Positions 42,045-60,330 of a stretch of DNA of 64,000 nt are shown here, in pieces. How positions within the stretch are numbered: position 1 is the first letter of the stretch; the number at the start of each line of letters is the position of its first letter. A program made the translations under genes and the position numbers. Source of the stretch: Thermoproteota archaeon (GTDB taxonomy: Archaea > Thermoproteota > Thermoprotei_A > Sulfolobales > Ignisphaeraceae); NCBI GenBank assembly GCA_030550585.1, contig JAUQPB010000004.1:99883-163882 (forward strand). Reading direction: 5' to 3'. The notes beneath the pieces were generated by a model, which was given only the letters and a program-made list of their open reading frames with translations, did not search any database and was not told the origin of the DNA.

Positions 42045-45000
42045 TTGAGGGTGAAGCTAACGAGTCAATTATCACATATGCTTTTCTATCAAAAGCTTGT
42101 TGAAGAGCAGCTTAAAGAGATGGAGTCTTCTAAGACACAAGGATTGTTGAGGTATGTTGTTTTCTGTTTTGGGCCGTCGTGTAAAGAAAGAGTTTTTTCT
42201 CATAGTGTCATGGGCTATGAGATTCGGGTGGTTCCTAAGACTCAGGTGGATCAAAATGTTTTGGGTAGGCTTATCAGTGATGGTATGCTAGTTGAGCTTG
42301 GCAAGGTGGATGGCGCTACTATTTACACTACTTTGCATGGGGATTTGGTGTTTAGGGTTTTGAGGGGCAGAGCTTATGAGGATGATTTGAATGGGAGGTG
42401 GGTTGGAGGTTTCAACATAGATATTGAGTATGAGTATGCACCTGATTTTGGGGCTAGAAGTGTTTCTTCAGATCTGAAGAATGTTTTGGCGAGGTTCTTC
42501 ATAGATAATGGTGTGAAAAAAGACATTGCAGAGAGGTTTTGCGAAGCCATTGTAGAGGGGCTTCATAGAAGCGGGTATCAGAAACTGGCTGAGTGGCAGC
42601 TGAAGGCCATAGAAAGAATTTTGATGGCATCAAAAGAGAGGAGATACTTCGTCATATCAGCGCCAACAGCTACAGGCAAGACCTTGGTATTCCAAATTGT
42701 TGCAATAGCCCATTCACTTTTATTCAAATATCGAGGAAATCAAAATAGGGTTCTAATAGTATATCCAAGGAGGGCTCTTCAAAAGCAGCAGTTGGGGAGA
42801 CTGGTAAAACCCCTTTACTTCATAAATAATAAACTTAAAGAGCTTGGGCTCCAACGATACACGGTAACCTTGGCTGTTGACAGCGGGGTTAGATATGGAT
42901 TAGAACCTCTTTTAGAGGGGAAATATATAGACACGGGAATTCCATGCCCAGAAAACGATAAGCTAACAATACGTGCACTATATAAAAACAATTTCGCTAT
43001 AAGATATGAATGCTCGGATAATAAGCCGCTGGATTTTCTTGTAGGAATAGTGTATACCAAGGAAGATAGGGATGAGGTAGCATTTAAAAAGCCGGACATA
43101 CTAATCTCCAATCCTTGGACTGTTGAACAGCGTTTGTTGCATCCAAAAAGCGAATACCAGCAACTATATAGAGGGTGTGGAGTCGTAATATTGGATGAAG
43201 CGCATGTTTACATAAACGTGAACTACGTACCACTAACAGCAATACTTAGATTACTTATTCAATTACGTAAAATCTATGATGAAGAACCTCTTGTTATAAC
43301 ATCATCTGCCACTATCCCACTATCAGATGTTGAAGACCTTGTTAGATGGATGTTTGGTGTAAGCAAACAGTCTGTTGAAAGTCTAGACTATGAGGAGCTT
43401 GAGCCAAGGCATGAGGAGCAACGTAGACTTAAGATTATTGTTACACTGCTTCCATATAGACGAAGCATTGAAACAATGTTGCATGGGATTATACAGCTCC
43501 TACTCCTAATACAGATGGGCAGAAGGCTAAAATCCATAGTATTCATTGATAGCATAAGCGAGACAGGCACAATAATGGACTACATAACAACAACATTTAA
43601 GTATAGAAGAGGTGTTGAACTCTGTGACCACATAAACCAAGTTTCCTGTAGAAATCACGAATACGATAAGTTGACGCCCAGAGATGCTCTCACAAGAGAT
43701 AACAGTGATTACAGCTGGGCCCATCTAATCGATTTATCAAATATGCAATATGTAAAGGATTTGATTGAAAAGCTCAGCACATTGATCAACCACGTAGGTT
43801 TGCATCATGGTGGATTAAACGAAGAACAGAGGCGCGAGATTGAAAAGAATTTTGAGACCGGCTTGCTAAAAACATTGATAGCTACATCGACACTAGACCT
43901 GGGGATGGACTATGACGACGTCGCATTCATTGTACAATACAAAGATCCCATAAGCGATGAAGCGCTGGAACAAAGAGTTGGAAGAGCTGGTAGAAAGGAA
44001 AATACCTATAGAATCTCGCTAGCATTTTACATACCTACGCTAACCCCCATGACAATACAAAGGTTTTTCAGTAGACCACAACAGAAAAAGGATGTTGCGT
44101 TACCCGATGAACTCACACTTGAATTAGTCTTTCTCCAACACGTTCTAGAATATCATATTATTCAGCAACTGAAAAGCTCTATACTCAATGGCAAAATAGG
44201 TGAGGTTAGATTAGATGAAGCTAAAAACATTATGATTCAATACATCGCCGAGTCGCTGAATAGCCAAAATATACTATGGCTGAGAAGATGGGGAGTTAGA
44301 GACGAGCTACTAAGGAAACTATCGCAAGCAGACTTCCTTAAACTAATGAAAATGCTTAAAGAACAGCTAGAAGCAGTAAAACCAATAGAGACATGGAAAG
44401 AATTTAGAAAGGAGATTAAAAAGCTATTAAAAGAATATGAAGCAGCAAAAAAGAGACCCCTAAAATTCTTAAGAGAGAGCCAAGAAATCAAACTCATTTT
44501 GCAGAGATACGGTATTAATTTGAAAGATAATAAGAAGGAAATAATCAGGTGTACAAAGGATGTACTAAAAGAGATATACAATATAGTGAAAGATGTTGAG
44601 AAAGATGTAACTAGGTTTGAAAACTCAAGTGCTTCATATGTTAACATATCATCTATTCAATCATATTTGCATTCTCTAATTCAAGAATTGTATAATAAAC
44701 TTAACAAAAAACGAGATTTGGAAGGTTGCAAAACTATGTCAATGTTCCCTAGTAAAATGTCTGTTACAGACATCGACAGAGTCGATAAAATTATGGTTAA
44801 ATGTGTATTGCCAGAAATATACAATGTCGAGTTAATGAGAATACGCAAACGCTTAGAGCCATTTTTTAATCTATTAAGAAGTAGTATTGAAAAGAGCTCT
44901 GCATCATTACTTATGGCGATAAGCGAATTCATCAATTTTAGCGGGTATGATATTGAAGAGTGTAATAAAATCGATGCGATTAAACTGAGCATGTGTTGGT

Positions 45001-45101
45001 ATATGGTTCTACGTGATGAGTTCTTCAACATAATGTCTAAGATTATTCCCATAACCTTTGCCTGGGAAAGCATAGATACTGTAGGTCTTAGGCCTTTGTG
45101 A
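42045..45101 (+). CDS. SF2 DEAH helicase (DrmA/DpdJ/Hrq1-like helicase core)
   Basis: APTATGKT, YP.RAL, DEAH, SSAT, HHGGL, ATSTLDLGMD and QRVGRAGR motifs. Confidence 0.9.
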   Translation: MRVKLTSQLSHMLFYQKLVEEQLKEMESSKTQGLLRYVVFCFGPSCKERVFSHSVMGYEIRVVPKTQVDQNVLGRLISDGMLVELGKVDGATIYTTLHGDLVFRVLRGRAYEDDLNGRWVGGFNIDIEYEYAPDFGARSVSSDLKNVLARFFIDNGVKKDIAERFCEAIVEGLHRSGYQKLAEWQLKAIERILMASKERRYFVISAPTATGKTLVFQIVAIAHSLLFKYRGNQNRVLIVYPRRALQKQQLGRLVKPLYFINNKLKELGLQRYTVTLAVDSGVRYGLEPLLEGKYIDTGIPCPENDKLTIRALYKNNFAIRYECSDNKPLDFLVGIVYTKEDRDEVAFKKPDILISNPWTVEQRLLHPKSEYQQLYRGCGVVILDEAHVYINVNYVPLTAILRLLIQLRKIYDEEPLVITSSATIPLSDVEDLVRWMFGVSKQSVESLDYEELEPRHEEQRRLKIIVTLLPYRRSIETMLHGIIQLLLLIQMGRRLKSIVFIDSISETGTIMDYITTTFKYRRGVELCDHINQVSCRNHEYDKLTPRDALTRDNSDYSWAHLIDLSNMQYVKDLIEKLSTLINHVGLHHGGLNEEQRREIEKNFETGLLKTLIATSTLDLGMDYDDVAFIVQYKDPISDEALEQRVGRAGRKENTYRISLAFYIPTLTPMTIQRFFSRPQQKKDVALPDELTLELVFLQHVLEYHIIQQLKSSILNGKIGEVRLDEAKNIMIQYIAESLNSQNILWLRRWGVRDELLRKLSQADFLKLMKMLKEQLEAVKPIETWKEFRKEIKKLLKEYEAAKKRPLKFLRESQEIKLILQRYGINLKDNKKEIIRCTKDVLKEIYNIVKDVEKDVTRFENSSASYVNISSIQSYLHSLIQELYNKLNKKRDLEGCKTMSMFPSKMSVTDIDRVDKIMVKCVLPEIYNVELMRIRKRLEPFFNLLRSSIEKSSASLLMAISEFINFSGYDIEECNKIDAIKLSMCWYMVLRDEFFNIMSKIIPITFAWESIDTVGLRPL

Positions 45102-45113
45102 GGTAAGGCGCCT

Positions 45114-47354
45114 ATGCTGGATCGTAGCGGATATGAGAGGGGGTATGAGAGGAGAGGCCTCGAAGCATTGTATACATTTACCCCATTTAAGATAGTTTAT
45201 AAGCAACATGGTGGAGGGGCTGGTGAAGAGCCTAGCGATGCTTATACATTGGTTATACTACCTCCAACGCGCTTCAAAGCATTTTACTACAAAGATTTTG
45301 GGGATGTTTGCAGAAAAAATTTAATTGATCTTCTCAAAAGAGAGTATCCAAAGAAAAATGTATGGGGGTTCTGGTTTCGTAGTACACTGAGAAAGCTTCC
45401 CATATCTGTTGACAATAGATATAATGTATATGAATATGTGGATTGGCCTGCTTTTCAATTCAAAAAAGATGGGCCCTATGTTGTGGTTCTACACAGTATT
45501 TTGTATCGGGCATTAACAGAGGATATTCCTATCGAGTATCGGAGACTGAGGAACCTTTTCAATAAGCACAGTGGGCTGTTTCTGCTAGCAGAGTACAGCT
45601 ACGAGTCATTGGCACATCCACGTTTTTGTCTTCGGGGCCTTGTCTTAATATCGCATAGGGACTCGTGTCCAATCAAATATGTGTGTCCTTTTGCTATATG
45701 GGGAAGGTGCAGTGGGAATTTGTATAGCATTAGAGAGACTTACAGCGGTTTATATAAGGTTATTCCACAAATCAAAGTAAAGCTACTCGACTTAGAGACT
45801 GTGGAGGGTGATAGAAAAAGGTCTAGAGTTAGATTGTTTGTTATACCATTTGGTTTTCACCCCTTGGCATATGTGTATTTTGTTGACGAATTATCCCTGC
45901 TAGCTTTTTACGAGGGGGTGGTTTTCCAGCCAAAGAAGTGTTGGATTCCATACCACTTTGCATCCTTTAGATACACACTAGGTATAAGGATTCTGAACAC
46001 AGATGCTATTGTTCTAGAGTTTGAAACCTCTACACTTGACAAAATTGTAAACGATTTGATGGAGCATAAGTGGGTTGTCTACAAAAAGGTTTTGTTGTCT
46101 GAAAGCAAACTTTGCGATGATTCTAAATGCGATATGAAACCAGACTATTTGGCACCTTGGAAGCGTCTATACAGTACAATACAATCAAACAATGCCGAAA
46201 CATTTGATACGCTTGTCAGAGACTCGAAGAGTCTTGATGAAGCAAACAAACAGTATTACAGATTTATAGTCGTGCACACAATAGCCCACAACATAATCTC
46301 TTCGCTATGGAGTGAGCTGGGTCTCGACCAAGATTATCTGTCATATAGGGTTCTGTATGATGGTGGCAAATGGAAGATATATTTGTATGAAACCGTTTCT
46401 GGTGGGCTGGGATACCTAAAGTATTTGGCAATGCAAAAATCTAGGTTGTACGAAATAATTGTGAAGAGCATATACAACGAGTCGTTGATTGGATCTAGAA
46501 TTGTGGAAGAGTATTGTAGGGGTGGTATAGATGATAGGGATGTAGCCGAGTTGAAGAGGTTTCTAGAAAATGTTGCAAAATATGCACAAGGAGATAGGGA
46601 ACTAGCTGACACTGCAAATGAGTTGAGCAGATTCATCTCACTGCTGTACGAGGTATACCGTAGACATGGGGTTACAATCCACCCATATACAATCAGATAT
46701 ATTCTACAAACGTTGGTGCCAGGTAGGCTTCGCGAAACTTTTGGCAATACTATGGACAGGATAGTGTCCATGTTCTCAGCATTTGATGGTAACATTGGCT
46801 GTGGGTTTATCGAGGATGGATGCTCTTTGGGGCCATTTCTAGAGCCTCTTTCTATTAGCTATACTGTTGTGGAGTACTTGGCTAAGCAGCATAGCAGAGC
46901 TGGGGAGGGTCTAAGTCTAGGCACAAGCGTTAGGGACATTATATTGCCGTGGCTGAAAATGGCTAGGACAAAGCTTAGGATAATAACATCAAATATATCG
47001 ATAGACAACAATATAATCGGGATTCTTTCAGAACTCTGCAGAAATGGAGGCAGCGTCTTTGTGATGCTAAGTAAAAACGCTGTTGATGATGAGGTTTCGA
47101 GGACAGCTGTAAATGAGTTGAGAAACAGTTTGGGAGGCTGTATCAAGGTGAGGATAAGTGAGAACCTCCGTGCAAAGGCGATAATAATAGATGATATGGC
47201 CGTTATCGAGGACCCGTTCGACTTTGCAAAATCTGGACTGGTATTCAACATAGAGAATCTGAGTAAAATCATTACAGACCCTGCCAAGGTTGGTGAATAT
47301 GTTAGGAAATTCAATGAGCTGTGGAATAGCAGCAAAGAATATGATGTGATGTAG
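45114..47354 (+). CDS. DUF1998-like domain fused to a degenerate PLD (HKD) domain (DrmB-DrmC-like fusion)
   Basis: HTIAH..YETVSGGLGY; C-terminal LRAKAIIIDD..EDPFDF..IEN..F.ELW. Confidence 0.75.
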   Translation: MLDRSGYERGYERRGLEALYTFTPFKIVYKQHGGGAGEEPSDAYTLVILPPTRFKAFYYKDFGDVCRKNLIDLLKREYPKKNVWGFWFRSTLRKLPISVDNRYNVYEYVDWPAFQFKKDGPYVVVLHSILYRALTEDIPIEYRRLRNLFNKHSGLFLLAEYSYESLAHPRFCLRGLVLISHRDSCPIKYVCPFAIWGRCSGNLYSIRETYSGLYKVIPQIKVKLLDLETVEGDRKRSRVRLFVIPFGFHPLAYVYFVDELSLLAFYEGVVFQPKKCWIPYHFASFRYTLGIRILNTDAIVLEFETSTLDKIVNDLMEHKWVVYKKVLLSESKLCDDSKCDMKPDYLAPWKRLYSTIQSNNAETFDTLVRDSKSLDEANKQYYRFIVVHTIAHNIISSLWSELGLDQDYLSYRVLYDGGKWKIYLYETVSGGLGYLKYLAMQKSRLYEIIVKSIYNESLIGSRIVEEYCRGGIDDRDVAELKRFLENVAKYAQGDRELADTANELSRFISLLYEVYRRHGVTIHPYTIRYILQTLVPGRLRETFGNTMDRIVSMFSAFDGNIGCGFIEDGCSLGPFLEPLSISYTVVEYLAKQHSRAGEGLSLGTSVRDIILPWLKMARTKLRIITSNISIDNNIIGILSELCRNGGSVFVMLSKNAVDDEVSRTAVNELRNSLGGCIKVRISENLRAKAIIIDDMAVIEDPFDFAKSGLVFNIENLSKIITDPAKVGEYVRKFNELWNSSKEYDVM

Positions 47355-47502: not shown

Positions 47503-47952
47503 CTAAGCCAGAGAATCTATGATTATCTTCGCATCTTCTTCTGGTATGGGTCTTCTCAAATTAGCTGGGGTCCCCACGAGGTATGCATTTGGCCTGCTCT
47601 TGTTCTTTATGAAGCTGAGTTTTGGGGCGAGCTCGTCGAAGCTTGCCACACCGATTTTAACTGGCTCTATCCTAACCCTCAGCGGGTACTTAACTCTGTT
47701 CTCTCTAATCTCATCTGGCCACAGAGGCCTCTCCTCTCTAAACCATGTTGACGCCACTCTGTATACACCCACAAACTTTCCGCCAAGACTCCTAGACCCC
47801 CTCTTCGAGACGTAGAAGATCAGGTAGTCGCCTACAGAGACCAGCTTGTCGATTGATCTAGATCCCCCCTGCTCCGGAGCCCCATACACATTTACATTCT
47901 TGATAACATCCCAGTTCTCCTCAGACACAACAACAATCCAGTACCTAGCCAT
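47503..47952 (-). CDS. EVE-domain (PUA-like) protein
   Basis: YWI..SEENW, GDYLIFY, FVGVYRV and YPLRV motifs. Confidence 0.88.
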   Translation of the reverse strand: MARYWIVVVSEENWDVIKNVNVYGAPEQGGSRSIDKLVSVGDYLIFYVSKRGSRSLGGKFVGVYRVASTWFREERPLWPDEIRENRVKYPLRVRIEPVKIGVASFDELAPKLSFIKNKSRPNAYLVGTPANLRRPIPEEDAKIIIDSLA

Positions 47953-48212
47953 ACAAACACCCCCACACAGCAAACTTTCACAGCATACAAATAAACGTTT
48001 CTCTCACATCAGCTACTCTATACACAGAAGAACTTATAGCTGCTAACTAGGTTCCAGATACAGCACATTATTTTGTGGATTTGCTGCCTAGTATCATACT
48101 CTTAGAAATTGCGTTTAATAAAGCCTAGTTTTGATGCTAATTGAATTGCAACAGATAAGATTGGTGCCATCAATTGATGTGCTTTTTGTCTTGAGGATTG
48201 TATATTGGTGTT

Positions 48213-50405
48213 TTACAGTCTTCTTAGTATGGATGAGTCAGGTATTTTGTTGCTGACTTTTATGATTCTGTTCAGCTTTTTGCATAGTTTATCTGCTTTG
48301 TGTAGTGGCCATGGTATTGATGGTAGCCAGACAGTGGATATGGAGGCGTAGTGTGTTAGATCCTGGATGTAGTCTAAGACCCTTTTGTGATCAGCATTGC
48401 CTGCTATATTTACTATCACAGGCCTTATGGTACCCTTTTCATATTCGCCCTTTATCGAGTTTGTTGTGACCCCAAGATACCTAGAAATCCTTATGTCTTT
48501 GAGCCATGTCGGCGACAATTCTACGAATACCCCGCTTCTAGGCGGGTTAACATATCTAATTTCAGCTCCGCCTTTTATCGATGCAGAGGCCAGTATTCTG
48601 GAATATGAATGTGTCTTGCTAATACCGACTATTACATGGTTCTGAAGCTTTTCTTTCTCTAGTTCCTCTAGGAACCTTTCTATACTTGATTTGTTTACCA
48701 TGATGAGCGCTTTTTTGTATCTACTAGCAATATCCTCTACGATGGTGGTCAGAACCTCTATATCGCTTTCGTCGATGTATTTGAATTCTACACTATAGTC
48801 TTTTATGTTGTCGGCCTTCACAGTTACGACTACAACACCTAAATATATCTGATTTCTTCCTACAGAAACTGTTGTAGCATCTATCCCTACAACATAGGCG
48901 TCTTCAAGCCCGCTAGGTGGGTTTAGATCATTGGGTATAGCACCAATTCTTGTAGCAAAGTCTTTTATAATGCTTTGGATCTTGAATGGGATCCTGCGCT
49001 TAAAATCATCTTCATCTATATCTGTCTCTATTCCAAGCTCATGCGGATAGAAGCCCTGGCTAGCGGCTTTATACTCGAACCTGCCTATGATATCGTCTAT
49101 CTCCTCTTTATCCAAGCTCTTATCATATAGCAATATCGCAAACTTCTCATCATAATCTTTGTATGCTTTCAAAATGTCTTCTAGATTATCTAAAAACATG
49201 ATCTCTTGTACAAGCCTGGGAGAACTAAGCAAACGACAGCTAACCGCCAAGGATTTAATGATATCTGTTGCAATTGAACATCTTCTATCATACCTTTTCG
49301 AATTACCAGGTGAAGTAACCACAAGTAGCACTCTTTTGCTGTTACCCTCGAATTTTGGGTACCACTTCCAATACTTGCTCTTTATTTGGGTGAGGTGTAC
49401 GGAGCTGGGAGGAACCTCAATAATATTTTGAGTGTTGATAGAGACTTGCATACCTTTGACGTTGTTGACGCTTTCTAAGATGGTGTTGGTGAGGATCTCC
49501 AAGGCTTGTTTGAATCTTTCGTGAGGTGGTTTGGTGAGAATTGGAACCTTTTCGAATAGAGCGATGTTGTCTAGCGATCCCACTGGTGTTAGAATCTCCA
49601 TTGGCAGTGGTATTGCCACTCGGTTTTTGCCTATGGTTGGTAGCCCAGGTATCCTGTTTTGGAGAGTTGTCGAGAGTTTTACGCTTTTTGGCGTTACATA
49701 GACTATGTTATCTGTTTTTCTGCTAAGTGACGTGTCGATTTCTGTGCCTCTAAACATATTTATTGTTTCGATAGCCTTTTCGATGACATTGCCATATTCT
49801 ATGTTTGTTTCTGGTACCTCGCTTTTCACAGTGTAGAATGAAACTGTTGTTCCCATAATTTTAACAAAGTCTATTTTCTCTGCCTGCTGAGGATACTTCT
49901 CGTGGATGTACCTCAAACTATAGATAAACTCTATCTTTGATGTTGGGTCTATGAATAGAGCTTTAGTCTCGTTGCCTAGATCGTCAACCGCGATTCTGAC
50001 AGCAGTGTATCTTAGGGCAAGTTCTTTGGCTAGCTGCTGGGCCTCGGATTTGTCGGGGTTGTAGAGCTTTGATGATGAGCTTACCCACCCATTGTTGATG
50101 AAGGCTATTCTTATGGCCGAAGAGATAAGCCTGTTGATTATGTCTGGTGAGAGTTTTGCCTGCTTTACCTGCTTTTTCTTAGCACCACCCACTCTATTCT
50201 CTAGTTTGTCGCTTTCATCAGCTGCATATACTATTAACCCGGTTACACCATCTCTTCTCTCTACTGCATGCGGTATATTCTCTTGGTATAGCAGCGAGCG
50301 TGCAAAGCCTATGTATTCCTCGGGAACCAGATACTCGTATATGGTGCTGGGGGCTTTGCTAATGGTTATTGGAAAGGCTAGCACAAAAATCTTCTCTCCA
50401 TCCAT
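48213..50405 (-). CDS. ago: Long prokaryotic Argonaute (N-L1-PAZ-L2-MID-PIWI) with atypical catalytic tetrad
   Basis: L1 LFIDPTSKIEF, PAZ end LPMEILTP, L2 PPHERF, MID end ATRIGAIP, PIWI VVGIDAT, ISK, GTIRP and PWPLHKADKL. Confidence 0.85.
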   Translation of the reverse strand: MDGEKIFVLAFPITISKAPSTIYEYLVPEEYIGFARSLLYQENIPHAVERRDGVTGLIVYAADESDKLENRVGGAKKKQVKQAKLSPDIINRLISSAIRIAFINNGWVSSSSKLYNPDKSEAQQLAKELALRYTAVRIAVDDLGNETKALFIDPTSKIEFIYSLRYIHEKYPQQAEKIDFVKIMGTTVSFYTVKSEVPETNIEYGNVIEKAIETINMFRGTEIDTSLSRKTDNIVYVTPKSVKLSTTLQNRIPGLPTIGKNRVAIPLPMEILTPVGSLDNIALFEKVPILTKPPHERFKQALEILTNTILESVNNVKGMQVSINTQNIIEVPPSSVHLTQIKSKYWKWYPKFEGNSKRVLLVVTSPGNSKRYDRRCSIATDIIKSLAVSCRLLSSPRLVQEIMFLDNLEDILKAYKDYDEKFAILLYDKSLDKEEIDDIIGRFEYKAASQGFYPHELGIETDIDEDDFKRRIPFKIQSIIKDFATRIGAIPNDLNPPSGLEDAYVVGIDATTVSVGRNQIYLGVVVVTVKADNIKDYSVEFKYIDESDIEVLTTIVEDIASRYKKALIMVNKSSIERFLEELEKEKLQNHVIVGISKTHSYSRILASASIKGGAEIRYVNPPRSGVFVELSPTWLKDIRISRYLGVTTNSIKGEYEKGTIRPVIVNIAGNADHKRVLDYIQDLTHYASISTVWLPSIPWPLHKADKLCKKLNRIIKVSNKIPDSSILRRL

Positions 50406-50407
50406 CT

Positions 50408-51283
50408 CTAAACAACCTCGAAGAGCATGTTCCTAGAGACCTTGTCGCAATAGTCTATATACGTCTTGTTCTCTATGCCAACAACACACAAAGCATTGTG
50501 GAGAACAGTTAAAGTCCCTTTGACCAACTCATTTACATGCTTTAAACCACTTGGAACACCATATCTAGTACCAGAGGCCCTGAGCTTCTTTAGGAACTCT
50601 ATATCCTCATCACATATCGACATAGTAAACCAGTACCTCGATGGCGGCAACAGCGGTTCATACCTATGCAACACATCTTCATCCCATAGAAAACCATACA
50701 TAGCATTAGCTATGCCAATCAGTCCATCTATTAGTGTCTTAGGATCTACAGCCCCTCTAACAATCCTATTAACCAAACCACCAACATACTCTCTCCTAGT
50801 ACGAATATTTGCACCTCTCAAAACAGACAGACCCCTTACCCTCCTAACCAAATACCTGTCCAAAACCTCCTCTGAACTAGCCCTCTCCTTAAATATAAGA
50901 GAAGTTACAACCATGCCACAGAGAGGCGCCTGCGAAAACATTCTACCTACAACATTAGACACACTCGAAGACCCCACCTTAACATAATTCCCATAATGAA
51001 GAAGATAAACAGCAACCTCATCACCAGCGCCCCTCACAACATTTGCACCCCCACCATAGGCAATCCTAGCCAACACCCTCACCTCCTCAAGAAAACCCAC
51101 CCTATATAAACCAATATACGGCGTCAAAGAGAGTCCAACCCTACCACCATACAACTCCTCCAAAGCCAAAGACTCAAACCACAGCACACCCGCAAAATGG
51201 TCAGAGTCATCAAAACCCCTTCCACCGATTGTACCACCTCGAAACTTAGACCAAGCACCTCTCCTCATAAACATCTTCCCCAT
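50408..51283 (-). CDS. DUF2797-like / GIY-YIG-superfamily putative nuclease
   Basis: VYLLHYGNYVKVGSS..GRMFSQAP..EE pattern; stop lies 2 nt before the ago ATG. Confidence 0.6.
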   Translation of the reverse strand: MGKMFMRRGAWSKFRGGTIGGRGFDDSDHFAGVLWFESLALEELYGGRVGLSLTPYIGLYRVGFLEEVRVLARIAYGGGANVVRGAGDEVAVYLLHYGNYVKVGSSSVSNVVGRMFSQAPLCGMVVTSLIFKERASSEEVLDRYLVRRVRGLSVLRGANIRTRREYVGGLVNRIVRGAVDPKTLIDGLIGIANAMYGFLWDEDVLHRYEPLLPPSRYWFTMSICDEDIEFLKKLRASGTRYGVPSGLKHVNELVKGTLTVLHNALCVVGIENKTYIDYCDKVSRNMLFEVV

Positions 51284-51584: not shown

Positions 51585-53009
51585 CTATGAATATATTCTT
51601 ATGTTGAGTCTCTCCTTGGGGAATTCTCCTGGTGCTATCTTGTGTAGCCAGTCTCTAACTCTCTGCCTGAACTCTAATGCAGCATCTGCTACCAGCTTAA
51701 GCTCGCTTTTATTAAATGATTTATGTGGGAATAGTAGCTTGATTAAAGCACTTGTAATTTTCTTAAAGCTCTTCTCGTCTCTTATCTTGAAGTTTTCTGA
51801 GAGTTCTATGTGTTTCCCTACTAGACCTACCAGAGATTCTTTTCTCATGCTATGCAACGCTTCTGCGAAGTAGTCTGAGGCTATTCCATACCCCTTAGAT
51901 AGATGATACTTGGTTTGAGAGATTTTGGGCAGTTCCCAGCCTGGTAGCAGACCATGGATTCTATCTATAAATGCCGAATCTCTCATGGGCTCAGGTAGCA
52001 CATAGGTTAAGTCTTCGATTGGTACATAACCTTCAGCACTCATTTCAACAGCTATATTGCCCATGAAGACCAACGACGCATCAGATACAACCTTCTTATC
52101 GCCTCTCTCATAGTGGCCGCTCTCCATATAGTCTTTGAGCTTGCCCATCATCTCATCCGGGTTCTGAAACCTAACCTTGCTAACCTCGTCAAAGACCACT
52201 ACGTCTTTAACAGCTAGCTCGCCAGGAACTCTAGTTCTTAAGTTGTAGAATAGAACAGCTGGTGATATGATTCCACCAGATATTATCCTAACATAGTTGC
52301 TCACATTTCTGTAGAGATACATCTTCCCAGTTTGCCTAGGGCCAAACTCAACCATATTCACATTGCCCTCAGCTAGCGGTATGAGGCGTGAGAGTAGGAG
52401 AAGCTTTTGCCTAGGGCTATAGACGGTGGGGTCTAGACCAATGGTATTTATCAAAACATCTATCCACTCATCAAGTGTGAAACACTCTCTAGCCTCCTCA
52501 AGAATCTTTGGGTCTGTATCAGGTGCTTGAAAAGGCTTGAAGTCTGCTACAACCACTGAAATAGGCCTCCCAAAAACCTCTATGGGGATATCCGACTTCT
52601 TGAGAGTTATCAGCCCCCACATCCCAGTTGTTAGTGTAGCCCTATTCCTATTAACAATGTCTACAGGCACCAGAGCCCATATATCAAGCGCCTGAATAAC
52701 ACCAACATGAGTCTCTGTCTCAATATCAACATACACTCTCAGCTCGTCGATTAACCTAACAACACCTTCCGTGACCAACTTGTGCTTAACAACCTCCTTC
52801 TCCTCAGGCTCATAATAATGATCTTTAACAAAATTTCTTAACTTACTTTCCCAATCACCACCGCCATACATGAACTCGGAGATTAGAAACTCAGCCACAT
52901 ACCTAGGAAGCTTGGCTAACTCAAGCTCATAGGCAAGCCTCTTATCAACAGCGTAATCGCCAAAACACCTCTTAACCTTATTAAACAACTCGCTCACACA
53001 ATCACCCAA
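51585..53009 (-). CDS. brxL: BrxL-like ATPase lacking the Lon protease domain
   Basis: PRYVAEFLI, LTTGMWG, FTLDEWID, GPRQTGK, FDEV, LKDYMESG, DSAFIDRIH..PGWE and RQRV motifs. Confidence 0.85.
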   Translation of the reverse strand: MGDCVSELFNKVKRCFGDYAVDKRLAYELELAKLPRYVAEFLISEFMYGGGDWESKLRNFVKDHYYEPEEKEVVKHKLVTEGVVRLIDELRVYVDIETETHVGVIQALDIWALVPVDIVNRNRATLTTGMWGLITLKKSDIPIEVFGRPISVVVADFKPFQAPDTDPKILEEARECFTLDEWIDVLINTIGLDPTVYSPRQKLLLLSRLIPLAEGNVNMVEFGPRQTGKMYLYRNVSNYVRIISGGIISPAVLFYNLRTRVPGELAVKDVVVFDEVSKVRFQNPDEMMGKLKDYMESGHYERGDKKVVSDASLVFMGNIAVEMSAEGYVPIEDLTYVLPEPMRDSAFIDRIHGLLPGWELPKISQTKYHLSKGYGIASDYFAEALHSMRKESLVGLVGKHIELSENFKIRDEKSFKKITSALIKLLFPHKSFNKSELKLVADAALEFRQRVRDWLHKIAPGEFPKERLNIRIYS

Positions 53010-56000
53010 TATCTAAGAGCGTCTTCCTCCTCTTAGGACCTGCAGACTCTACAACATCTATAACAATATCCAAAGAGTTTTCCTCACCACGCCAAACCCA
53101 CTTGAGAACACCTTTATATTTACCCGGCTTCAGAGGAGGTGTTGAAATTCTATACCTCCCCTCTACAATACTGAAAGAACCCTTACCCCAAGGCAACTCA
53201 TACGTAAACACTATCTCCTCACCCGATGGGTTAACAACATCGACCTCGATATAAGATCCCACATCAGGCTGCAGAGAAGTGTTCAAAACATTGACAATGG
53301 GTCTCTCCGGCATAACAACTTCTTCCTCCTCAGAAATCTCCTCACCAGAGAGCACCGCTAGCAACTTCTTGAGCTCTCTAAGCTCAGTCTCGTTCATGCC
53401 AAACAGTTTAGCAACAGCAACATCCAGCTCCTCCTCAACCTTTCTAAGCTCACCCTCAAGACCCCTTCTACCCTTTTCATAGATCTCTCTAGCAAGCTCG
53501 TGAGCTCTCATAGAAAGCTCAACTATTTTCTGATGATTAGGGTTACACTTATCGAATTTAGGAATGCGCATATTTTCAAGCATACCTCCTACCATGTAGA
53601 CACCATATACAGTTGCTATTGTGGAATTTAGTATTCCAGCAATATAGTATGCTTCATCTCTATCATAGAGTGGTATCAGTATCACTGTATGATCAGGTAT
53701 GACAACTTTTTTACCTAAATACCTACTCTCAACAGGCTCCACAACAGCGACATGAAATCCACCAGCTTGCATACGTGCCGATACCTCCTTCCAGACAACT
53801 TTATAAGGTGCAAAAGTATATGAGCCGATATCATAAACGGAATAAAATGGGTTTCCCTTACCCCACAGTTTATGTACCGATCTACCTTCCAGCTCCCTCT
53901 TATACATATTTAAGTAATCGTAAGTTTGTGGGAACTTTACTTTAAAGTCACTCTCACGAAGAGGTTTGCCTGTTTTAGGGTCATGCGGCACAATTATGTA
54001 TCTGTCCTCGAAGCTTACATACCATTTCTTCACGTCTCTTCCTCTTATCAACGGATATACTAGATCTGGTTCCACGGCAACCTCAACTTGCTTAACCTTT
54101 TTCTTCTGGCCTGGCTCAGGAGGATTTGTGATCCTGAGTTTTCCATCGTGAAGTTTTTCAAGTATTTTCACAAAGTATACCTGGTTTAGCGCCACATTTA
54201 CTCCTTCGTGGGCTTCATAATACTGGCTTCTACCAACCATTTTTCTGATGGCTTCAAGTGCTCGTGGAGTTACCTGCATCCAAGGACTGGTAGGATCATT
54301 TGTTATTAGAGGAGCCATTACGGCTTCAAACCGTTGTGTTGCCTTTAACACTTCCTCTAAAGGCGTGTCTGTTGGTATAGGCTTCTTTGATGTATTGGCC
54401 CATACTATGTGTTTAATCTCACTAATGTTGCTCTTGTATACCTCTCCCATCTGCGGACATCTGCCATTGTTAATGTCTGATAGGCTACACACCTTCTCGA
54501 CAACTATTGCAGCTGTTCTGTTTACTGCCCCCTCAAACGGATATAGTGTTACAAGGTCGTGGATCACGTGTATACGGGTCTTCCTAACAAGGAAATCTCT
54601 GAAGCCTGCACCTGCCTGAGTTTTAAATACTGTGAATGGCATTAAGAAGCCCAGCTTGCCTCCCTCCTTGAGGTATAGATCAAAGCATCTCGCTAGGAAG
54701 AGCATTGCCAGATCTCTCTTAACTTTGCCTAAACCTGTCTTACCTTTGATTTCGGCAAGTCCGTATCTAACCCACAAATCTTTGCTTATCTCCCTATAGT
54801 TTTCTGGTAGGTTTTCCCAGTTTACCCATGGTGGGTTGCCCACAACGTAGTCGAACTTCCCTTTAAGTATTGGTGCAAAGGCGTTTCTCAGGATTGAGAT
54901 CCATACATCGTCTTTGCCCTCTTCCTCGAGCTTGAGTAACTCCCCAAACAACTTTCCTAGCATTTCAGCATCTCTTTCGCTTACATCTTTAAACTTATAC
55001 CTAATTCTATTCTTAAAGTCCTCAACGCTATACCTATTCCTCAGAGCCTGGGATATTTCGGCCAGTATCTCGGGTAGCAAGCCCTTGTCAACAACATTTA
55101 TAGGTATCTGAAACTCTCCAACAACTGTTCTAAGTATGTACACATCGCCGGTCAGCTGCGTGCTTCTCTCAATCATTATCGAGTCGGCTAGGTACACAGG
55201 TATCTCAATTTTCCCTCTGGCATAGCTAAGCAGGTCTGCTATAGCCAACAGATAGTTTGTTCTAGCTGTGAGGACCGCCAATGGATTAAGATCGTATCCC
55301 ACAACATTCTCTAAGACATAATCTAATAATTGGTCTGTTAGGTAGTGCTCCTCGGCATATCTCCTAAGCCTGCTTATGTAGAGTACTAGGAATGTCCCTG
55401 AGCCACATGCCGGATCCAAAACCCTTATCCTAAGAGGTTTTAGCGAGTCTTCCTCACCCATCTTAAGCAGGTTATCTAGGCTCAGACCAATTTCATCTAG
55501 TAATAAGTTGGCTAGCCAGTCTGGTGTGTAGAACTCTCCGAGTCTGTGCCTCAAGTCGCTTGGAACAAGGTTCTGGTAGAGCCTCTTCAGCAAGTCCCTG
55601 GCAAACTCGGGCTCTAGCTGGGGTGTGGCCACCTCGTAGTCCGATAGTCTTCTAGCTATCTCTGCTATAACATCTGCTAGGTCTTTATCGAGTTCGTCTA
55701 GATACCACGAGAAGTAGTCGCCCTCTAGGAAATTCTCGATGTTGAGTAGCTTTCTGAATAGACCCCCACTCTCAAGATCTCTTAGAACATCTTTAACACC
55801 TTCAACGCCACCTCTAGAATATGCGTCGTCGAGTTCGGCTACATAGGATCTGTAGAACCTCCCTCCACCGTACAAGTATGCTATCTCAGCGGCTAACAGC
55901 TTCATTATTAGAGCATAATACGTGTGGATAGAGAATATCAGTGCATCGTAATCTATGCTTTCCACAAGGCCATACTCGCTCGCTAGCTTCGGCAACTCCT

Positions 56001-56661
56001 CAAGCTCTTCTGGTTTATAGCCTGTTGCCTGCTTGAAGAGCCTCATCCAGTCTTCGAATAGAGTTTTTGTTCTGGGGCTTTTGCTCTGTTTAAGCTTGTT
56101 GTAGAGCAACTTGATGGCTTTTCTCGCTATTTCAGACTGGGGCCCGAAGTCCCTGACAAGACTATTGACATCCAAATTCTTTCTTCTGAGACCTCTTAAA
56201 GCCTCAACAAGCTTTACTACAACCTCGCGCCTAATGTCGTAGGGCCCTCTCAGCACCCACGCATCGCTTCTAGGATCATATCTGACAAAAGCTATTCTAT
56301 CGCTTATTATTACACCTAGATACCTAGACCACTCAGATTTGCCTCCAGCCTCATCCCTTATGTATCTTATGACCTGCTCCTTAGCTCTTTGAATATCGTG
56401 GGCCGAGGACAGCTTGCCAGGGGCTTTATACTCTACAATTACATGCCCATATAAGGCATCAACCCTAGCACCAGAGACCAACGTATACTCATACTTACCA
56501 GCAACACTTTGAAGACCCAGAGGCTTCAAAATCTTTTCCTCTATACACGACGAAACCCTTACCCTAACATCCTCCTCTGTAGCGGCTCTAAGAACAGAAT
56601 TCTTAATACACAACATTATATCATCAATATCTAGCTGAGGAACACTAATACGCTGAGACAC
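53002..56661 (-). CDS. Type IIG restriction-modification fusion (PD-(D/E)xK nuclease + amino-MTase + TRD) with extra C-terminal beta domain
   Basis: VDAL..VEYK, GEFYTP, DPACGSGTF, GNPPW and GILNS motifs. Confidence 0.9.
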   Translation of the reverse strand: MSQRISVPQLDIDDIMLCIKNSVLRAATEEDVRVRVSSCIEEKILKPLGLQSVAGKYEYTLVSGARVDALYGHVIVEYKAPGKLSSAHDIQRAKEQVIRYIRDEAGGKSEWSRYLGVIISDRIAFVRYDPRSDAWVLRGPYDIRREVVVKLVEALRGLRRKNLDVNSLVRDFGPQSEIARKAIKLLYNKLKQSKSPRTKTLFEDWMRLFKQATGYKPEELEELPKLASEYGLVESIDYDALIFSIHTYYALIMKLLAAEIAYLYGGGRFYRSYVAELDDAYSRGGVEGVKDVLRDLESGGLFRKLLNIENFLEGDYFSWYLDELDKDLADVIAEIARRLSDYEVATPQLEPEFARDLLKRLYQNLVPSDLRHRLGEFYTPDWLANLLLDEIGLSLDNLLKMGEEDSLKPLRIRVLDPACGSGTFLVLYISRLRRYAEEHYLTDQLLDYVLENVVGYDLNPLAVLTARTNYLLAIADLLSYARGKIEIPVYLADSIMIERSTQLTGDVYILRTVVGEFQIPINVVDKGLLPEILAEISQALRNRYSVEDFKNRIRYKFKDVSERDAEMLGKLFGELLKLEEEGKDDVWISILRNAFAPILKGKFDYVVGNPPWVNWENLPENYREISKDLWVRYGLAEIKGKTGLGKVKRDLAMLFLARCFDLYLKEGGKLGFLMPFTVFKTQAGAGFRDFLVRKTRIHVIHDLVTLYPFEGAVNRTAAIVVEKVCSLSDINNGRCPQMGEVYKSNISEIKHIVWANTSKKPIPTDTPLEEVLKATQRFEAVMAPLITNDPTSPWMQVTPRALEAIRKMVGRSQYYEAHEGVNVALNQVYFVKILEKLHDGKLRITNPPEPGQKKKVKQVEVAVEPDLVYPLIRGRDVKKWYVSFEDRYIIVPHDPKTGKPLRESDFKVKFPQTYDYLNMYKRELEGRSVHKLWGKGNPFYSVYDIGSYTFAPYKVVWKEVSARMQAGGFHVAVVEPVESRYLGKKVVIPDHTVILIPLYDRDEAYYIAGILNSTIATVYGVYMVGGMLENMRIPKFDKCNPNHQKIVELSMRAHELAREIYEKGRRGLEGELRKVEEELDVAVAKLFGMNETELRELKKLLAVLSGEEISEEEEVVMPERPIVNVLNTSLQPDVGSYIEVDVVNPSGEEIVFTYELPWGKGSFSIVEGRYRISTPPLKPGKYKGVLKWVWRGEENSLDIVIDVVESAGPKRRKTLLDIG

Positions 56662-56667
56662 CCTAAT

Positions 56668-56871
56668 TCACCTCTTCCTAGGCCTAACTCTAATTACAAA
56701 TACAGAAACTTTATTTGAGCGAGGGCTCACACCATAATAGTAATTGAAAACTCCATGACACTTCGGGCACTCAATCCTCTTGACGGTGTAGAATCTAAAT
56801 TTCCACGGTTTTCTGAGAAGCTTAAACCCCTCCTCACTTGAATCATAACCACAGAACGGACATTTGACCAT
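56668..56871 (-). CDS. Small Zn-ribbon protein leading the RM-brxL operon
   Basis: CPFC..CPKC; 6 nt from the MTase start. Confidence 0.7.
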   Translation of the reverse strand: MVKCPFCGYDSSEEGFKLLRKPWKFRFYTVKRIECPKCHGVFNYYYGVSPRSNKVSVFVIRVRPRKR

Positions 56872-57493
56872 GTTCCCACACCTTTTCTTCTGTTCTATAG
56901 CATCTTCCAACACTAGTTACAGCTAATGTAGACATAGACTCTTCAGCGCCTGTTATAAAATCTGCTATGAACAGAGTAAATAAAGGTATCTATCCCGGCA
57001 ATAACGTTTTAAGATGTCGCTTTTCATATCTATTCTATGATATTTTGGATCTCCAACAAAGACTGTTAGACATAGCTGGTGAGTCATTCTTTGTTGGTCT
57101 TAGGAATTCTAAGCACTTTGATGTTTTAACTCTTTCTTCGATGAACCCTTTAATGCACTTAATACATAAGTAGCGGTATATGCCAAGCTATATTATGACT
57201 GGAAAATTGGGGTGGGATAGGCTAATGGAGGCAATGGCAACTCTTATATCCAGGTAACAACACTTATCTCACTCCCTGAGGCAATTGACAAATTTGCTAG
57301 AGCCCTACAAAACATGTCTTACTTGCTAGGACATCTCTTTTCAAAGAGCATTTGCTACTACATCAAAGTATTTTGTTTTTGTATTGCTTGCAGAATCTTG
57401 TAACAATCTAGGTGATGAAAAGCTCCTAAAGAATTGAGAGAATTAGCTATATATGTTGTTTTGCAAACCAGGTGAAAATAGAATGGCTTTGAA

Positions 57494-58532
57494 GTGGTTG
57501 TTATGTCGGGCGAGAGCTCAGAGAATGTTATTGAATTGGCTCAAAGATTTCTTGTGTATGCCAAATACGATTTAGAAATAGCTGAGATATTGTATTCGCT
57601 GGAGGCGCAGAAACAGAACCATTATTATAAGCAACAGGCTCTCTACTACTTAGAGCAGGCCTCAGAAAAGACCCTAAAGACCTATATTATTTATCTATGG
57701 GTTCTCCAGCTAAGCTTCGTTACAGAGATTGCTGAGAAGATAAATACATCAGAGAAGTTTAGAGATGTTCACAATCTGTTGAAGAGAATTAGTGGTTATG
57801 TAGACCCGAGAAAACTGGGACACGAATTCCGGGGGGTTCTTAAAAGATTTCACTAATTTATTTGAGAGCTGGTGCTCGGGAAGGCTAATCGATTACATGA
57901 ATTCTACACTAAGTCAAATACCTACTAGCCTAGCTAAGAGTAAGGAGCGGATTATAGAAGGCGGTGTTGAGGAAGGGGCTATGCCGAGAGAAGCAGCTGA
58001 GAAATTAATTGATTTGATTGTTTCATATTATTCGCAACCAGTACCCATTGTAATGGACGACACAAGGAAAAGCTTGTGTATGGATGCCCAATCCATCTTT
58101 GGCAGATATTTAGAGTCGATAAATACCGCTGAGCGTTGCCTCGAGCTAACCACACAGTTCGTTGAAAAGGTGGAGGAGCAAGCTGAAACCGTTTATAACA
58201 GAGTCCTAAGAGAATACGAAGCATCTCTACTTGTGACAATGAAAATCAAGGAACTGCTATCGGGACTAGCTGAGCTAGCCGGTTTGATACCTTTGCCCAA
58301 GGCTTTAAGCGAAAAAAGACTAGAGGAACTCTTAAAAATCATTGTGGTAGACAACCTTGATGTGTTTATGTCAATTCCACTACACATTTGCTTAAGCCGA
58401 TATTACAATGATGTAAGGTATGGAAAGGTTCAAGAAGATGAGCTAAAGACGCTACCAGATGTCATTAGACTGCTAAGGAATATCCATGAAAAAACAGAAA
58501 ACATATTCTCGTTAATCTACCATTATGCGTAA
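57494..58532 (+). pseudogene. Extended HEPN-domain protein split by a +1 frameshift
   Basis: A..DL..A, LEQASEKTLK, RKLGH and YNDVRY motifs; removing one G from G6 at 57831-57836 restores a single ORF. Confidence 0.7.
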
Positions 58533-58762
58533 ACTTCGATACATACAACAACTGATTTATGCCAAAGCATTAATTATATAGCCGGAACACATAGGGGCAA
58601 GCATTTTTTGGTAGTACCGGCAGGCTTCCATAACCCAGCATCAGTTCACCAATTATCATGCAACTCATTATAATCTAATTAATAGGAGTTGCTACAACTC
58701 TTGACCAGAGAGATGTCTAGTATACTTAAGGCTAGAATTGCTTAACTCCACGCAATAAATCC

Positions 58763-59386
58763 TTAAATACCATAGATACGTTTGTAATTCAAATCTATGA
58801 CACGAACAATCTTTAAATCCATTTCTAAATGTTTGATTATCTTATCATACTCTTTATTATCATACCATTCTTTTACTTCATTGCCATAGCCAAAAGGCTC
58901 TGGAACATCTATTCCGCTGCTTCTTGCCTTCTCAACCAGGTACTCAAGTTTTAGATCCTTGAATTTCATGTTATGGAATGGTAGAGATGTTTGGAAGTAG
59001 TCTATGGTGAAGGTGTTGTGCCATAACTCATTTAGATTTGGTAGAGTTTCCACGTTGTATTCTACTCCTTTCTGTATGAGAAGCAGGACATCGAATCTAA
59101 GTATGTTGAAGCCTATAACACTGAGAAAGTCTATTCTATTATTCTTCTGATCTTGAACGAGTCTTCTCAAATAATCGTAGAATTGAAGAACCACATTTCT
59201 CTCCCCTCCAAGCTCCCACTCAGCAAAATAATGAAACTTTACGCTATGCCCATCCCATATCTTTGAAGATTCTGGTTTGTATGGAGTCCAATCCTCTAAT
59301 ACGCCAATAACAATTATTTTCTCTCTTCTAAAGATGTCCTCGTTTCTCGGCCTATAGGTTTCTACGTCTAGATAGAAAACCCACAA
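58763..59386 (-). CDS. DEDD / RNase H-like 3'-5' exonuclease (YprB/PolB-exo-like)
   Basis: LDVETY, GFNILRFD, IDYF and HLEMDL motifs. Confidence 0.75.
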   Translation of the reverse strand: MWVFYLDVETYRPRNEDIFRREKIIVIGVLEDWTPYKPESSKIWDGHSVKFHYFAEWELGGERNVVLQFYDYLRRLVQDQKNNRIDFLSVIGFNILRFDVLLLIQKGVEYNVETLPNLNELWHNTFTIDYFQTSLPFHNMKFKDLKLEYLVEKARSSGIDVPEPFGYGNEVKEWYDNKEYDKIIKHLEMDLKIVRVIDLNYKRIYGI

Positions 59387-59646
59387 CCTCTCTCACAACA
59401 CCATAATCCACAGCAACTCTGTACATCATACCGCTCACCATATCAAAGTTCTCTCAGTGGATAATAAATGCTTTAGAGATGATATACTAAAGCGCTCTTG
59501 ATTAGCCCCAGCTCTCGAAAACAATGAGAACCCTGGTGAATATGCTGCTGCAGAAGGTTTGCAAAGGACTTTATCGAGAAGTGCTTTAGGGATTAGCCGA
59601 TCTATTCTTGTCGACACCACATATTCATCCTCATGACTGTTCTAGA

Positions 59647-60330
59647 TTATGGTATGGGCAGTCCTGCTTTGCTGAAAGCACTCTTTATTTCTTCTGCATA
59701 TTTATTGATTCTCTCTTCAGCTGTTTCTCCAAATTCATTTCTTCCTCTTCCATATACGTAGCTGTGGAATGGTATTCTCTGAATGGGGTTCTTGATCCCC
59801 AGTGCACTTCTGTGTTTTTTGAGTAGGCGTTCTGATTCGCCACCCATTGCTATTACGACAGGCTCTTTCCCAGTGATCTTCTTTACCAGCTCTAGCTCTT
59901 TCTTTAAAAACTCTAGGCATGGTTTAGGCACATCCCTGATTTTCTCTTCTGCTTTACCCTTGCACTTGATCAAATCTGTTACCAGTATTCTGCTGTCGTA
60001 GTAAACGAATGTATCTTTCTCCATCGCAAACCTCTCTTCGACAAGCCCAAGCCTCTTCAAAGCATTTGCCAAGTAGATATTTGCAGTATCTATAATCCAT
60101 GCTCCTGTCGGCCTCAAGGCAACTATAACCCCATTCAACTCCCCAGTATACCTAAACAATATGTAGTAAACATCTTTTCCACAAGGAAACTTGTTTTTGA
60201 ACCACCAACACCATTTGTTTGATAGGCTGTGCTCAGACAGCTTCTCAGAATCCCAAGAACCCCTATATGGACAGCCCACAAAATTACAGTTCATAACCTC
60301 GTTCTGCAAATCATAAAACCCCTCAATCAT
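59647..60330 (-). CDS. Divergent uracil-DNA-glycosylase-superfamily protein
   Basis: VALRP, VTDLIKC, CLEFLKKELELVK..VIAMG and PFHSY motifs. Confidence 0.65.
   Translation of the reverse strand: MIEGFYDLQNEVMNCNFVGCPYRGSWDSEKLSEHSLSNKWCWWFKNKFPCGKDVYYILFRYTGELNGVIVALRPTGAWIIDTANIYLANALKRLGLVEERFAMEKDTFVYYDSRILVTDLIKCKGKAEEKIRDVPKPCLEFLKKELELVKKITGKEPVVIAMGGESERLLKKHRSALGIKNPIQRIPFHSYVYGRGRNEFGETAEERINKYAEEIKSAFSKAGLPIP

Follow-up and report, generated by a model that had tools for sequence, protein, structure and literature searches.

Does a dense run of defence-related genes in an archaeal genome act as one composite system, or is it a stack of separate systems sharing a site? The question is raised by positions 42045-60330 of a 64,000-nucleotide stretch of a Thermoproteota archaeon (hereafter the window, G000:C6:99883-163882, whose right end coincides with the contig end), taken from a 1.76 Mb archaeal genome (G000) that is 99.92% complete in 7 contigs. 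The island is filled by 12 open reading frames (ORFs), in which we distinguish four units: a DISARM-type helicase gene with a gene for a protein that has a PLD and a putative DUF1998 domain, a stand-alone EVE gene, an Argonaute gene (ago) with a partner gene for a protein of 291 amino acids (aa), and a cassette formed by a small Cys-rich gene, a Type IIG restriction-modification (RM) gene and a short brxL gene. Our results support a stack of modules, each occurring without the others elsewhere, and not one composite. The region of about 41975-60848 is quite probably a strain-variable defence hotspot, in which independently mobile units accumulated and partly decayed. As a defence island, the stretch is ordinary and involves no new principle; it is the Argonaute pair and the Type IIG/BrxL cassette that differ from described forms.

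The evidence for separate modules comes from relatives and from other loci. Indeed, the synteny comparison proposed by an earlier note on this DNA, itself made from the letters alone, indicated that the units travel separately (in genome G008, on contig C4 of G000 and in metagenome loci). Genome G008 carries the same helicase and PLD pair at 45% aa identity without the other island units, and a second copy of the Cys-rich, Type IIG and BrxL genes lies in G000 itself (contig C4), in the same order, at 64, 65 and 57% aa identity, respectively, and with unrelated neighbours. That note had offered two readings, stacked independent modules, which our results uphold, and a composite system in which RM or helicase products supply Argonaute guides, which they do not. 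In such a composite, the Type IIG enzyme, the helicase-PLD pair or both would produce DNA fragments that are loaded as Argonaute guides, and the units would be interdependent, as might be suggested by their adjacency and shared orientation on the minus strand, by the presence of the whole set in both G000 and genome G007, and by the restriction-type genes (HsdR, Mrr) that also accompany prokaryotic Argonaute (pAgo) pairs elsewhere. However, Type IIG, BrxL or the PLD protein occurs in 0/18 other ago-pair loci (with a weak helicase match in locus L057), Type IIG-BrxL is found without ago at the second site in G000 and at 15 other loci, the PLD motif is degenerate in G000, and G007 is not an independent case. 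The composite reading thus falls because each unit occurs independently in relatives or other loci, and of all the alternatives that we weighed it is the most improbable.

The EVE gene deserves separate consideration, as it is the unit for which links to the others can be found. Its product scores 135.3 bits against NF002008 (cut-off 139) and has homologs in 23 of the 121 genomes of the order (G000 included), i.e., a patchy, accessory distribution, with 4/12 of the other genomes of the genus and 13/13 genomes of one family being positive and some copies carrying stop codons. The protein would act as a stand-alone EVE reader, and such proteins have already been described beside archaeal RM-like systems in the available text of Bell et al. 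2020 (PMC7641849). Like the proteins described there, it consists of one EVE domain and is encoded among archaeal defence genes, and in metagenome locus L064 the EVE gene stands beside an SNF2-NOV_C helicase gene, as in the reported SNF2-nuclease/DUF499 systems; in contrast to what that text covers, EVE flanks an Argonaute pair here and in two metagenome loci. One could therefore imagine EVE as a shared reader of modified bases that serves the Type IIG/BrxL cassette or the Argonaute pair, the three forming a super-module. Such an arrangement would be in line with the reported archaeal RM-like neighbourhoods, with two metagenome loci (L056 and L064) in which an EVE gene of 58-62% identity immediately precedes the 291-aa/ago pair, and with the EVE-domain genes that adjoin Type IIG-BrxL in two genomes (L094, L097). 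Nevertheless, when 1.5 kb on each side of 18 other EVE genes of the order were inspected, neither ago nor the 291-aa gene, Type IIG, BrxL or another island gene turned up, no EVE gene was found at 13/15 other ago pairs or at 9/11 examined Type IIG-BrxL loci, and a 240-bp gap separates ago from EVE in the island. We thus consider the super-module unlikely, and keep EVE as a module of its own.

The limits of the island were obtained by aligning public hot-spring metagenome contigs (runs X1, X2 and X4) to it. In a 16.2 kb contig of run X4, position 41974 is joined to 47500 through 4574 foreign letters and the similarity ends past 48015; in this contig the helicase pair is replaced and EVE is retained, and the match stops short of the Argonaute gene. 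For X2 and X4 contigs, similarity resumes only from 60849. From these breakpoints, the region of about 41975-60848 can be delimited as a variable one with piecewise turnover. On the left, the island begins, as previously claimed, at a 5'-truncated gene fragment (41705-41992), which corresponds to the C-terminal 95 aa of a 279-aa gene and shows 70% identity by tblastn to the C-terminus of the intact gene at G000:C1:86506-87345, encoding a coiled-coil and PD-(D/E)XK-like protein. The sharp synteny breakpoints at 41974 and 60849, this truncated gene and the lower GC content in parts of the island (0.37-0.39 vs 0.44-0.45 in the flanks) might also be expected if one integrative mobile element had brought in the whole 19 kb at once. 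Yet no integrase was found, the window contains no tRNA gene, there are no flanking direct repeats of at least 18 nt, and both the X4 strain (EVE kept, other DNA in place of the helicase pair, no ago) and the confinement of the divergence from G007 to 43.5-48.5 kb point to piecewise turnover and patchwise recombination. A single arrival therefore appears very unlikely, nearly as much so as the guide-supplying composite. Note that Rfam gave no match at E 0.1 across 40000-64000, and that no empty site was located, nucleotide synteny with other members of the genus being too weak.

Genome G007, filed as another species of the genus, carries 41000-60900 at 99% identity. Since it is also 99-100% identical to G000 over further long tracts (and 4-30% different elsewhere), it does not count as an independent instance of the island. 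Across the island, the two genomes show 213 differences, about 190 of which lie within 43.5-48.5 kb (up to 47 per 500 bp), almost none being found in 50-60.9 kb, and the 10 kb right of the patch are identical bar one indel. The divergent patch takes in the second (3') half of the helicase gene as well as the genes for the PLD and EVE proteins, and judging from this pattern of differences it looks like an imported allele, in a recombination-like manner.

Several points weigh against a stack of independent units and should be set beside the evidence above. The only other genome with the whole island is G007, and no second, independent genome was found in which units once together were later separated. 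The EVE adjacencies at the Argonaute pair and at Type IIG-BrxL leave room for some cross-talk between units. In addition, the three minus-strand operons are putative, as they were delimited from gene spacing.

The features of the island and its borders are listed in Table 1. The gene order and ORF positions of the earlier note proved correct, no housekeeping gene lies inside the island, and its labels of EVE, ago, Type IIG and brxL were confirmed (by Pfam, fold, PADLOC and TIGR02688, respectively). Where it counted ten nucleic-acid-related genes, family-level or Atlas-level backing for such a role was obtained for 7 of the 12 ORFs and not for the remainder. Its view that no canonical system is complete also stands, since neither PglZ nor BrxC was found, the genome has no homolog of the DISARM-linked methyltransferase of G008, and the SNF2 helicase of G008 finds there no more than a generic match of 26%.

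Table 1. Genes of the island and of its immediate borders (window coordinates).
Position	Strand	Feature	Basis
40730-41506		Conserved metallophosphoesterase gene, left flank	Metallophos_2 3.1e-30
41705..41992	-	5'-truncated gene fragment, C-terminal 95 aa, left island border	tblastn
42045..45101	+	DrmA-like superfamily 2 (SF2; DEAH) helicase without own DUF1998, 1018 aa	Pfam, PADLOC
45114..47354	+	DrmB-DrmC-like fusion with DUF1998/MZB-like middle and C-terminal PLD, 746 aa	PLDc_2
47503..47973	-	Stand-alone EVE (PUA-like) protein, 156 aa	Pfam EVE 1.1e-13
48213..50405	-	Full-length (long) prokaryotic Argonaute, 730 aa	Fold match
50408..51283	-	Argonaute partner of no known family, 291 aa	Directly upstream of ago, same operon
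51585..53009	-	Short, protease-less BrxL with N-terminal DNA-binding part and MCM-like AAA+, 474 aa	TIGR02688
53002..56661	-	Single-chain Type IIG RM enzyme, 1219 aa	PADLOC PDLC03630 (REase_MTase_IIG)
56668..56913	-	Small Cys-rich ORF resembling a Zn ribbon, at the head of the Type IIG operon, 81 aa	Conserved position
57494..58532	+	One gene split by a frameshift (ORFs 57494-57856, 57897-58532)	G007 comparison
58763..59386	-	PolB-exonuclease/RNase H-like (DEDD-type) protein, 207 aa	Atlas
59647..60330	-	Protein with weak UDG-superfamily match, 227 aa	Pfam UDG
60898-61644		Creatininase-family gene, right flank	3e-56

For the two units that depart from described forms, we put forward a bolder proposal, tentatively and with rather more doubt than confidence in it as a whole, namely that (i) the 291-aa/ago pair represents a class of long pAgo defence not yet described, belonging to hot-spring Thermoproteota, with a strictly conserved D-E/D-N-x pocket and a new upstream effector partner, possibly a T5orf172/GIY-YIG-like nuclease, that is switched on by guide-target recognition, and (ii) the Type IIG/short-BrxL cassette is a second undescribed unit, one of ATP-coupled restriction.

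The 730-aa protein has no Pfam match and, in PADLOC, matches pAgo/PIWI models only, at about 2e-8 (pAgo 2.3e-8). Because sequence-based searches of the PDB, with the single sequence and with a profile, gave only E 0.03-0.8, its identification rests on the fold. Its AF2 model (22 sequences; predicted local distance difference test score, pLDDT, 85.2; predicted template modelling score, pTM, 0.86) retrieved CbAgo in Foldseek with E 1.7e-25 and a template modelling (TM) score of 0.62, then TtAgo (TM also 0.62) and SIWI, with TM 0.58-0.62 over the Argonaute matches, while VIA aligned 536-630 residues, over residues 1-730, with CbAgo, TtAgo, KmAgo and others (Z 16.3-19.4). Since the model matches full-length Argonautes over the whole length, the protein is assigned to the long pAgos. 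The family is tiny, with 4 proteins including itself in a word-indexed search and 35 representative clusters among 1.84 billion proteins in a profile search, and its genome-derived members are hot-spring Thermoproteota archaea.

Using 36 family sequences (a few of them near-duplicates), we compared the active-site positions, which are D509, D548, N571 and D705 in this genome. D509 is kept in 36/36 sequences, position 548 is always acidic (D in 10/36, E in 26/36), the third position, after the fourth PIWI strand, is Asn in all 36, and the fourth is mostly D (22), otherwise N (11) or H (3). In the alignment, the counterpart of D705 is the TtAgo residue that we take to be D660, and N571 was placed opposite TtAgo D546 by motif and strand position and not by structural superposition. 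According to the PDB title of 3ho1, Asn at this third position is the substitution that inactivates TtAgo. The family thus departs from the catalytic DEDX tetrad at its third position throughout and, with Asn there in 36/36 members, the Argonaute most likely cannot slice.

Its partner was found as tightly linked to ago as an operon would suggest. Only 2 nt separate the end of the 291-aa gene from the start codon of ago, and a homolog of the 291-aa gene lies directly upstream of the ago homolog, on the same strand, in 15/16 metagenome loci (12 with a hidden Markov model of five sequences, 15 after one further round) and in 2/2 genome loci, both of which are Desulfurococcaceae metagenome-assembled genomes with 30% and 33% identity. 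The sole metagenome locus without the partner (L057) has an ago fragment of 383 aa. Note that distinct metagenome contexts are nearer 13, L050/L051 and L060/L061 seemingly duplicating others. The neighbours of the pair vary (HsdR and YgjP, Mrr-domain proteins, a DUF1156 methyltransferase with DUF499, SNF2-NOV_C with MBL, and Macro), which argues for a self-contained unit that lives in defence islands.

The partner itself was previously labelled a nuclease, a label that found no footing, as Pfam, PADLOC, NCBIfam and the PDB (by sequence and profile) gave no match for the protein and its AF2 model (5 sequences) reached a pLDDT of only 41.2, too poor for a fold search. Its invariant residues (Y93, Y97, K102, G104, Q118, A119, P120 and E138, plus a later W-F motif) resemble the T5orf172 branch of the GIY-YIG nucleases, a weak lead in which the Arg is not conserved, and an alignment by hhalign of the partner profile with T5orf172 pairs Y93, K102-G104, Q118-P120 and E138. 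Loaded with a guide, the Argonaute would detect invader nucleic acid and then act through this partner, which may be a T5orf172/GIY-YIG-like nuclease effector. The complex predicted for the Argonaute with residues 30-291 of the partner gave scores of 0.84, 0.00 and 0.85 against 0.67 for the control, and was used neither way.

On the other side of this proposal, the loss of slicing is read from a single Asn, and the strict D509 together with the acidic position 548 could mean a non-canonical active site. As for the partner, the comparison of its 17-sequence profile with a 10-sequence T5orf172 profile scored 18.3 (pairwise E 0.034, probability 1.5%; E 0.43 against a single sequence), the Atlas score between the partner and T5orf172/GIY-YIG is only 0.79, and the T5orf172 family is present in 1 of the 401 sampled genomes of the phylum.

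By its features, the pair comes closest to the long-B systems BPAN, BPAS and BPAM, as far as these are described in the accessible part of Song et al. 2023 (PMC10620215). Both have a full-length Argonaute with a non-canonical tetrad, and in both ago shares a conserved operon of two genes with a partner that co-varies with it, within defence islands. In that account, the partner of inactive long pAgos lies downstream and belongs to PD-(D/E)XK, Sir2 or membrane families, whereas here it lies upstream of ago (17 loci) and outside the PD-(D/E)XK, Sir2 and transmembrane families, and only the third tetrad position is changed (D-E/D-N-D/N/H). By titles and abstracts, no published account of an Argonaute paired with a GIY-YIG-type partner was found; the supplementary tables of PMC10620215 may list one among their 'other' partners. 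As a small, tightly conserved thermophilic system, the pair could reveal a further mode of signalling by non-slicing Argonautes and could yield thermostable guide-directed tools.

One subclade of the pairs (L058, L060 and L063) has an Mrr_cat gene upstream on the same strand, and in L060 and L063 another one convergent downstream; these genes may be further components of the pair.

In the Type IIG/BrxL cassette, the BrxL protein matches TIGR02688 with 597.3 bits (cut-off 329.3; 1.6e-179) as well as the Pfam families BrxL_ATPase (8.6e-119) and BrxL_N (7.2e-28). Because the long BrxL model of PADLOC (680 positions) is matched only over positions 7-464, the protein lacks the Lon-like domain. The Type IIG protein fits its PADLOC model from one end to the other (1283.6 bits; residues 6-1106 on model positions 7-1100 of 1100), with Pfam matches to Eco57I (7e-19) and N6_Mtase (1.1e-8), as is typical of enzymes that combine nuclease, gamma-class N6-adenine methyltransferase and specificity parts in a single chain. 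Its translation contains D...EYK, which we take to be the nuclease motif, and DPACGSG and NPPW, presumably those of the methyltransferase. A tail of about 110 aa extends beyond the C-terminus of the model; the Type IIG homolog of G033, which has no BrxL beside it, is 1070 aa long, and since its alignment stops at residue 1100 it is devoid of this tail. The 81-aa ORF in front is Cys-rich and has a conserved position beside Type IIG, in agreement with the earlier Zn-ribbon label, although its matches to Zn-ribbon families stayed below threshold. The three genes overlap or nearly abut, the brxL gene overlapping the Type IIG stop by 8 nt.

The association is recurrent. TIGR02688 is present in 32/401 sampled genomes of the phylum, and a Type IIG homolog lies directly upstream of a short BrxL in 15 of 29 other loci, which is 15/25 of the testable ones (4 have no upstream DNA and 10 have something else upstream). 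Among 11 of the 15 positive loci examined in full, 10 encode a full-length Type IIG protein (1209-1279 aa) and 1 a broken one, and 6/11 have a small Cys-rich homolog nearby. In the broken case (L095, G050:C1:1372000-1381000), Type IIG is split into three ORFs (166, 830 and 197 aa) and BrxL is intact. Two loci without Type IIG, L105 (G070) and L106 (G105), have BrxL preceded by a methyltransferase-like protein of about 940 aa and a protein of about 1100 aa without family, a layout that may represent a second kind of BrxL-linked methylation system.

In the proposed mechanism, the Type IIG enzyme would methylate host sites and cut unmethylated DNA, and the BrxL ring ATPase would serve as its DNA-loading accessory, outside any BREX system. 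Searches for PglZ (PF08665) and BrxC (PF10923) gave 0 matches in this nearly complete genome, the control genomes being positive; according to the text available for PMC10164562, PglZ and BrxC/PglY are common to all BREX types. The BrxL protein itself resembles that of Type-4 BREX, described in the accessible part of PMC12839542 as a short form with an N-terminal DNA-binding part and an MCM-like AAA+ but no C-terminal extension. The cassette thus differs from BREX by its pairing of BrxL with a nuclease-bearing Type IIG enzyme and by the lack of a detected PglZ or BrxC, and from other single-chain RM enzymes of the Type IIG/MmeI kind, whose model it matches throughout, by its extra tail and by the small Cys-rich gene that often precedes it. 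Our literature search found no published account of the Type IIG-BrxL pairing, within titles and abstracts and within the part of PMC12839542 consulted, where neither Type IIG nor MmeI appears. The role of BrxL within BREX itself is unsettled, and its place here, next to a single classical restriction enzyme and with no other BREX gene, offers a very simple context in which to study its function.

The helicase and PLD pair has the look of a system in decay. The helicase matches DEAD (1.9e-19), Helicase_C (4.9e-13) and ResIII in Pfam, without MZB, and by eye its Walker A, DEAH and motif VI are intact. The defence-helicase models of PADLOC match it about equally weakly (BrxHI 8.4e-24, SngC 4.5e-23, DrmA 8.2e-22 and DpdJ 1.2e-17), BrxHI and SngC scoring at least as well as DrmA; the 'Dpd-like' and 'base-modification' labels once given to the island have no backing beyond generic helicase similarity. 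Concerning the second gene, Pfam upheld the PLD part of the label helicase/DUF1998-PLD (PADLOC DrmC 4.6e-4; PLDc_2 1.3e-7 at the C-terminus), as well as the helicase, whereas DUF1998 was reached only below threshold (MZB/DUF1998 at residues 391-436, E 0.027, 15.6 bits vs a cut-off of 24.2). In the G008 homolog (45% identity), MZB matches at the same place (0.0048), with PADLOC DrmB at 0.017 and DrmC at 1.4e-9. There, the pair is followed by a 372-aa N6/N4 methyltransferase gene and, beyond it, by convergent genes for an SNF2-NOV_C helicase (DrmD 5e-56 and HmaA 6e-61 in PADLOC models) and an MBL hydrolase. Neither a methyltransferase nor an SNF2 gene lies between 42045 and 47503 of the window.

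According to the available text of the YprA preprint (10.1101/2025.09.15.676423), DISARM is the branch that always encodes the helicase and the DUF1998 array on two genes, with a PLD nuclease gene next. On the basis of this layout of a separate helicase, a putative DUF1998 part and a PLD domain, and of the G008 context, the unit can be read as a DISARM-type core with DrmB and DrmC fused. In this reading, DrmA, DrmB and DrmC of a class-1 DISARM-like system would be left, its methyltransferase and SNF2 helicase having been lost. As in class 1 DISARM, the SF2 helicase has no DUF1998 of its own and the next gene, here with a putative DUF1998 part, includes a PLD domain; in the relative G008, a methyltransferase and an SNF2 helicase of the DrmD type are also present. 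Unlike class 1 DISARM, DrmB and DrmC are fused into one protein, DrmMI and DrmD were not found in this genome, the matches to the DrmA/B/C models are weak and the PLD motif is degenerate. Indeed, the HxK...GSxN motif reads R-A-K...DPFD in G000, H-A-K...GSSN in G007 and H-A-K...GSFN in G008. The unit is therefore probably an incomplete, decaying DISARM-like remnant, with the loss of PLD nuclease activity predicted from the motif. A degenerate PLD in a DISARM-like core without methyltransferase provides a small natural example of system decay.

The pair formed by an SNF2-NOV_C helicase and an MBL-fold hydrolase was seen twice, with DISARM-like genes in G008:C8:97000-112000 (L011) and beside EVE and the 291-aa/ago pair in L064.

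The three right-hand genes are separate and poorly supported, and one of them is frameshifted. The gene split at 57494-58532 has an extra G in a G-run near 57826-57831, where X1 and X2 contigs are one base shorter (at 57831) and G007 has a single ORF of 345 aa. It was labelled HEPN by eye only, and neither of the two pieces nor the fused 345-aa form has a HEPN match in Pfam at E 0.01 (C-terminal piece, E 0.42). The 207-aa protein, formerly called a DEDD exonuclease, begins with a D-x-E motif, has no Pfam match that would confirm the name, and has a 71% homolog in G027; the Atlas alone provides a lead, with cosines of 0.95-0.99 to clusters carrying DNA_pol_B_exo1/2 and RNase_H_2. Likewise, the UDG fold attributed to the 227-aa protein was not confirmed, as the Pfam UDG match stays below threshold (E 0.0072, 16.9 bits vs a cut-off of 24.3) and no PDB sequence matched.

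Outside the island, further genes and regions of the window deserve mention. About 10 kb to the left (31513-32323) lies a pair of genes for a HEPN protein (Pfam 5.8e-27) and a nucleotidyltransferase (3.7e-5) with a toxin-antitoxin-like look, and just to the right a 255-aa ORF without match is immediately followed by the gene for an 80-aa toxin of the ParE family (62667-62909; 9.2e-8). Positions 29206-30297 encode a 363-aa archaeal ATPase_2/STAND-like protein with an MCM_C winged-helix tail. Finally, the region 17000-23000 has few long ORFs and a low GC content (0.345-0.38 vs about 0.43 around it).

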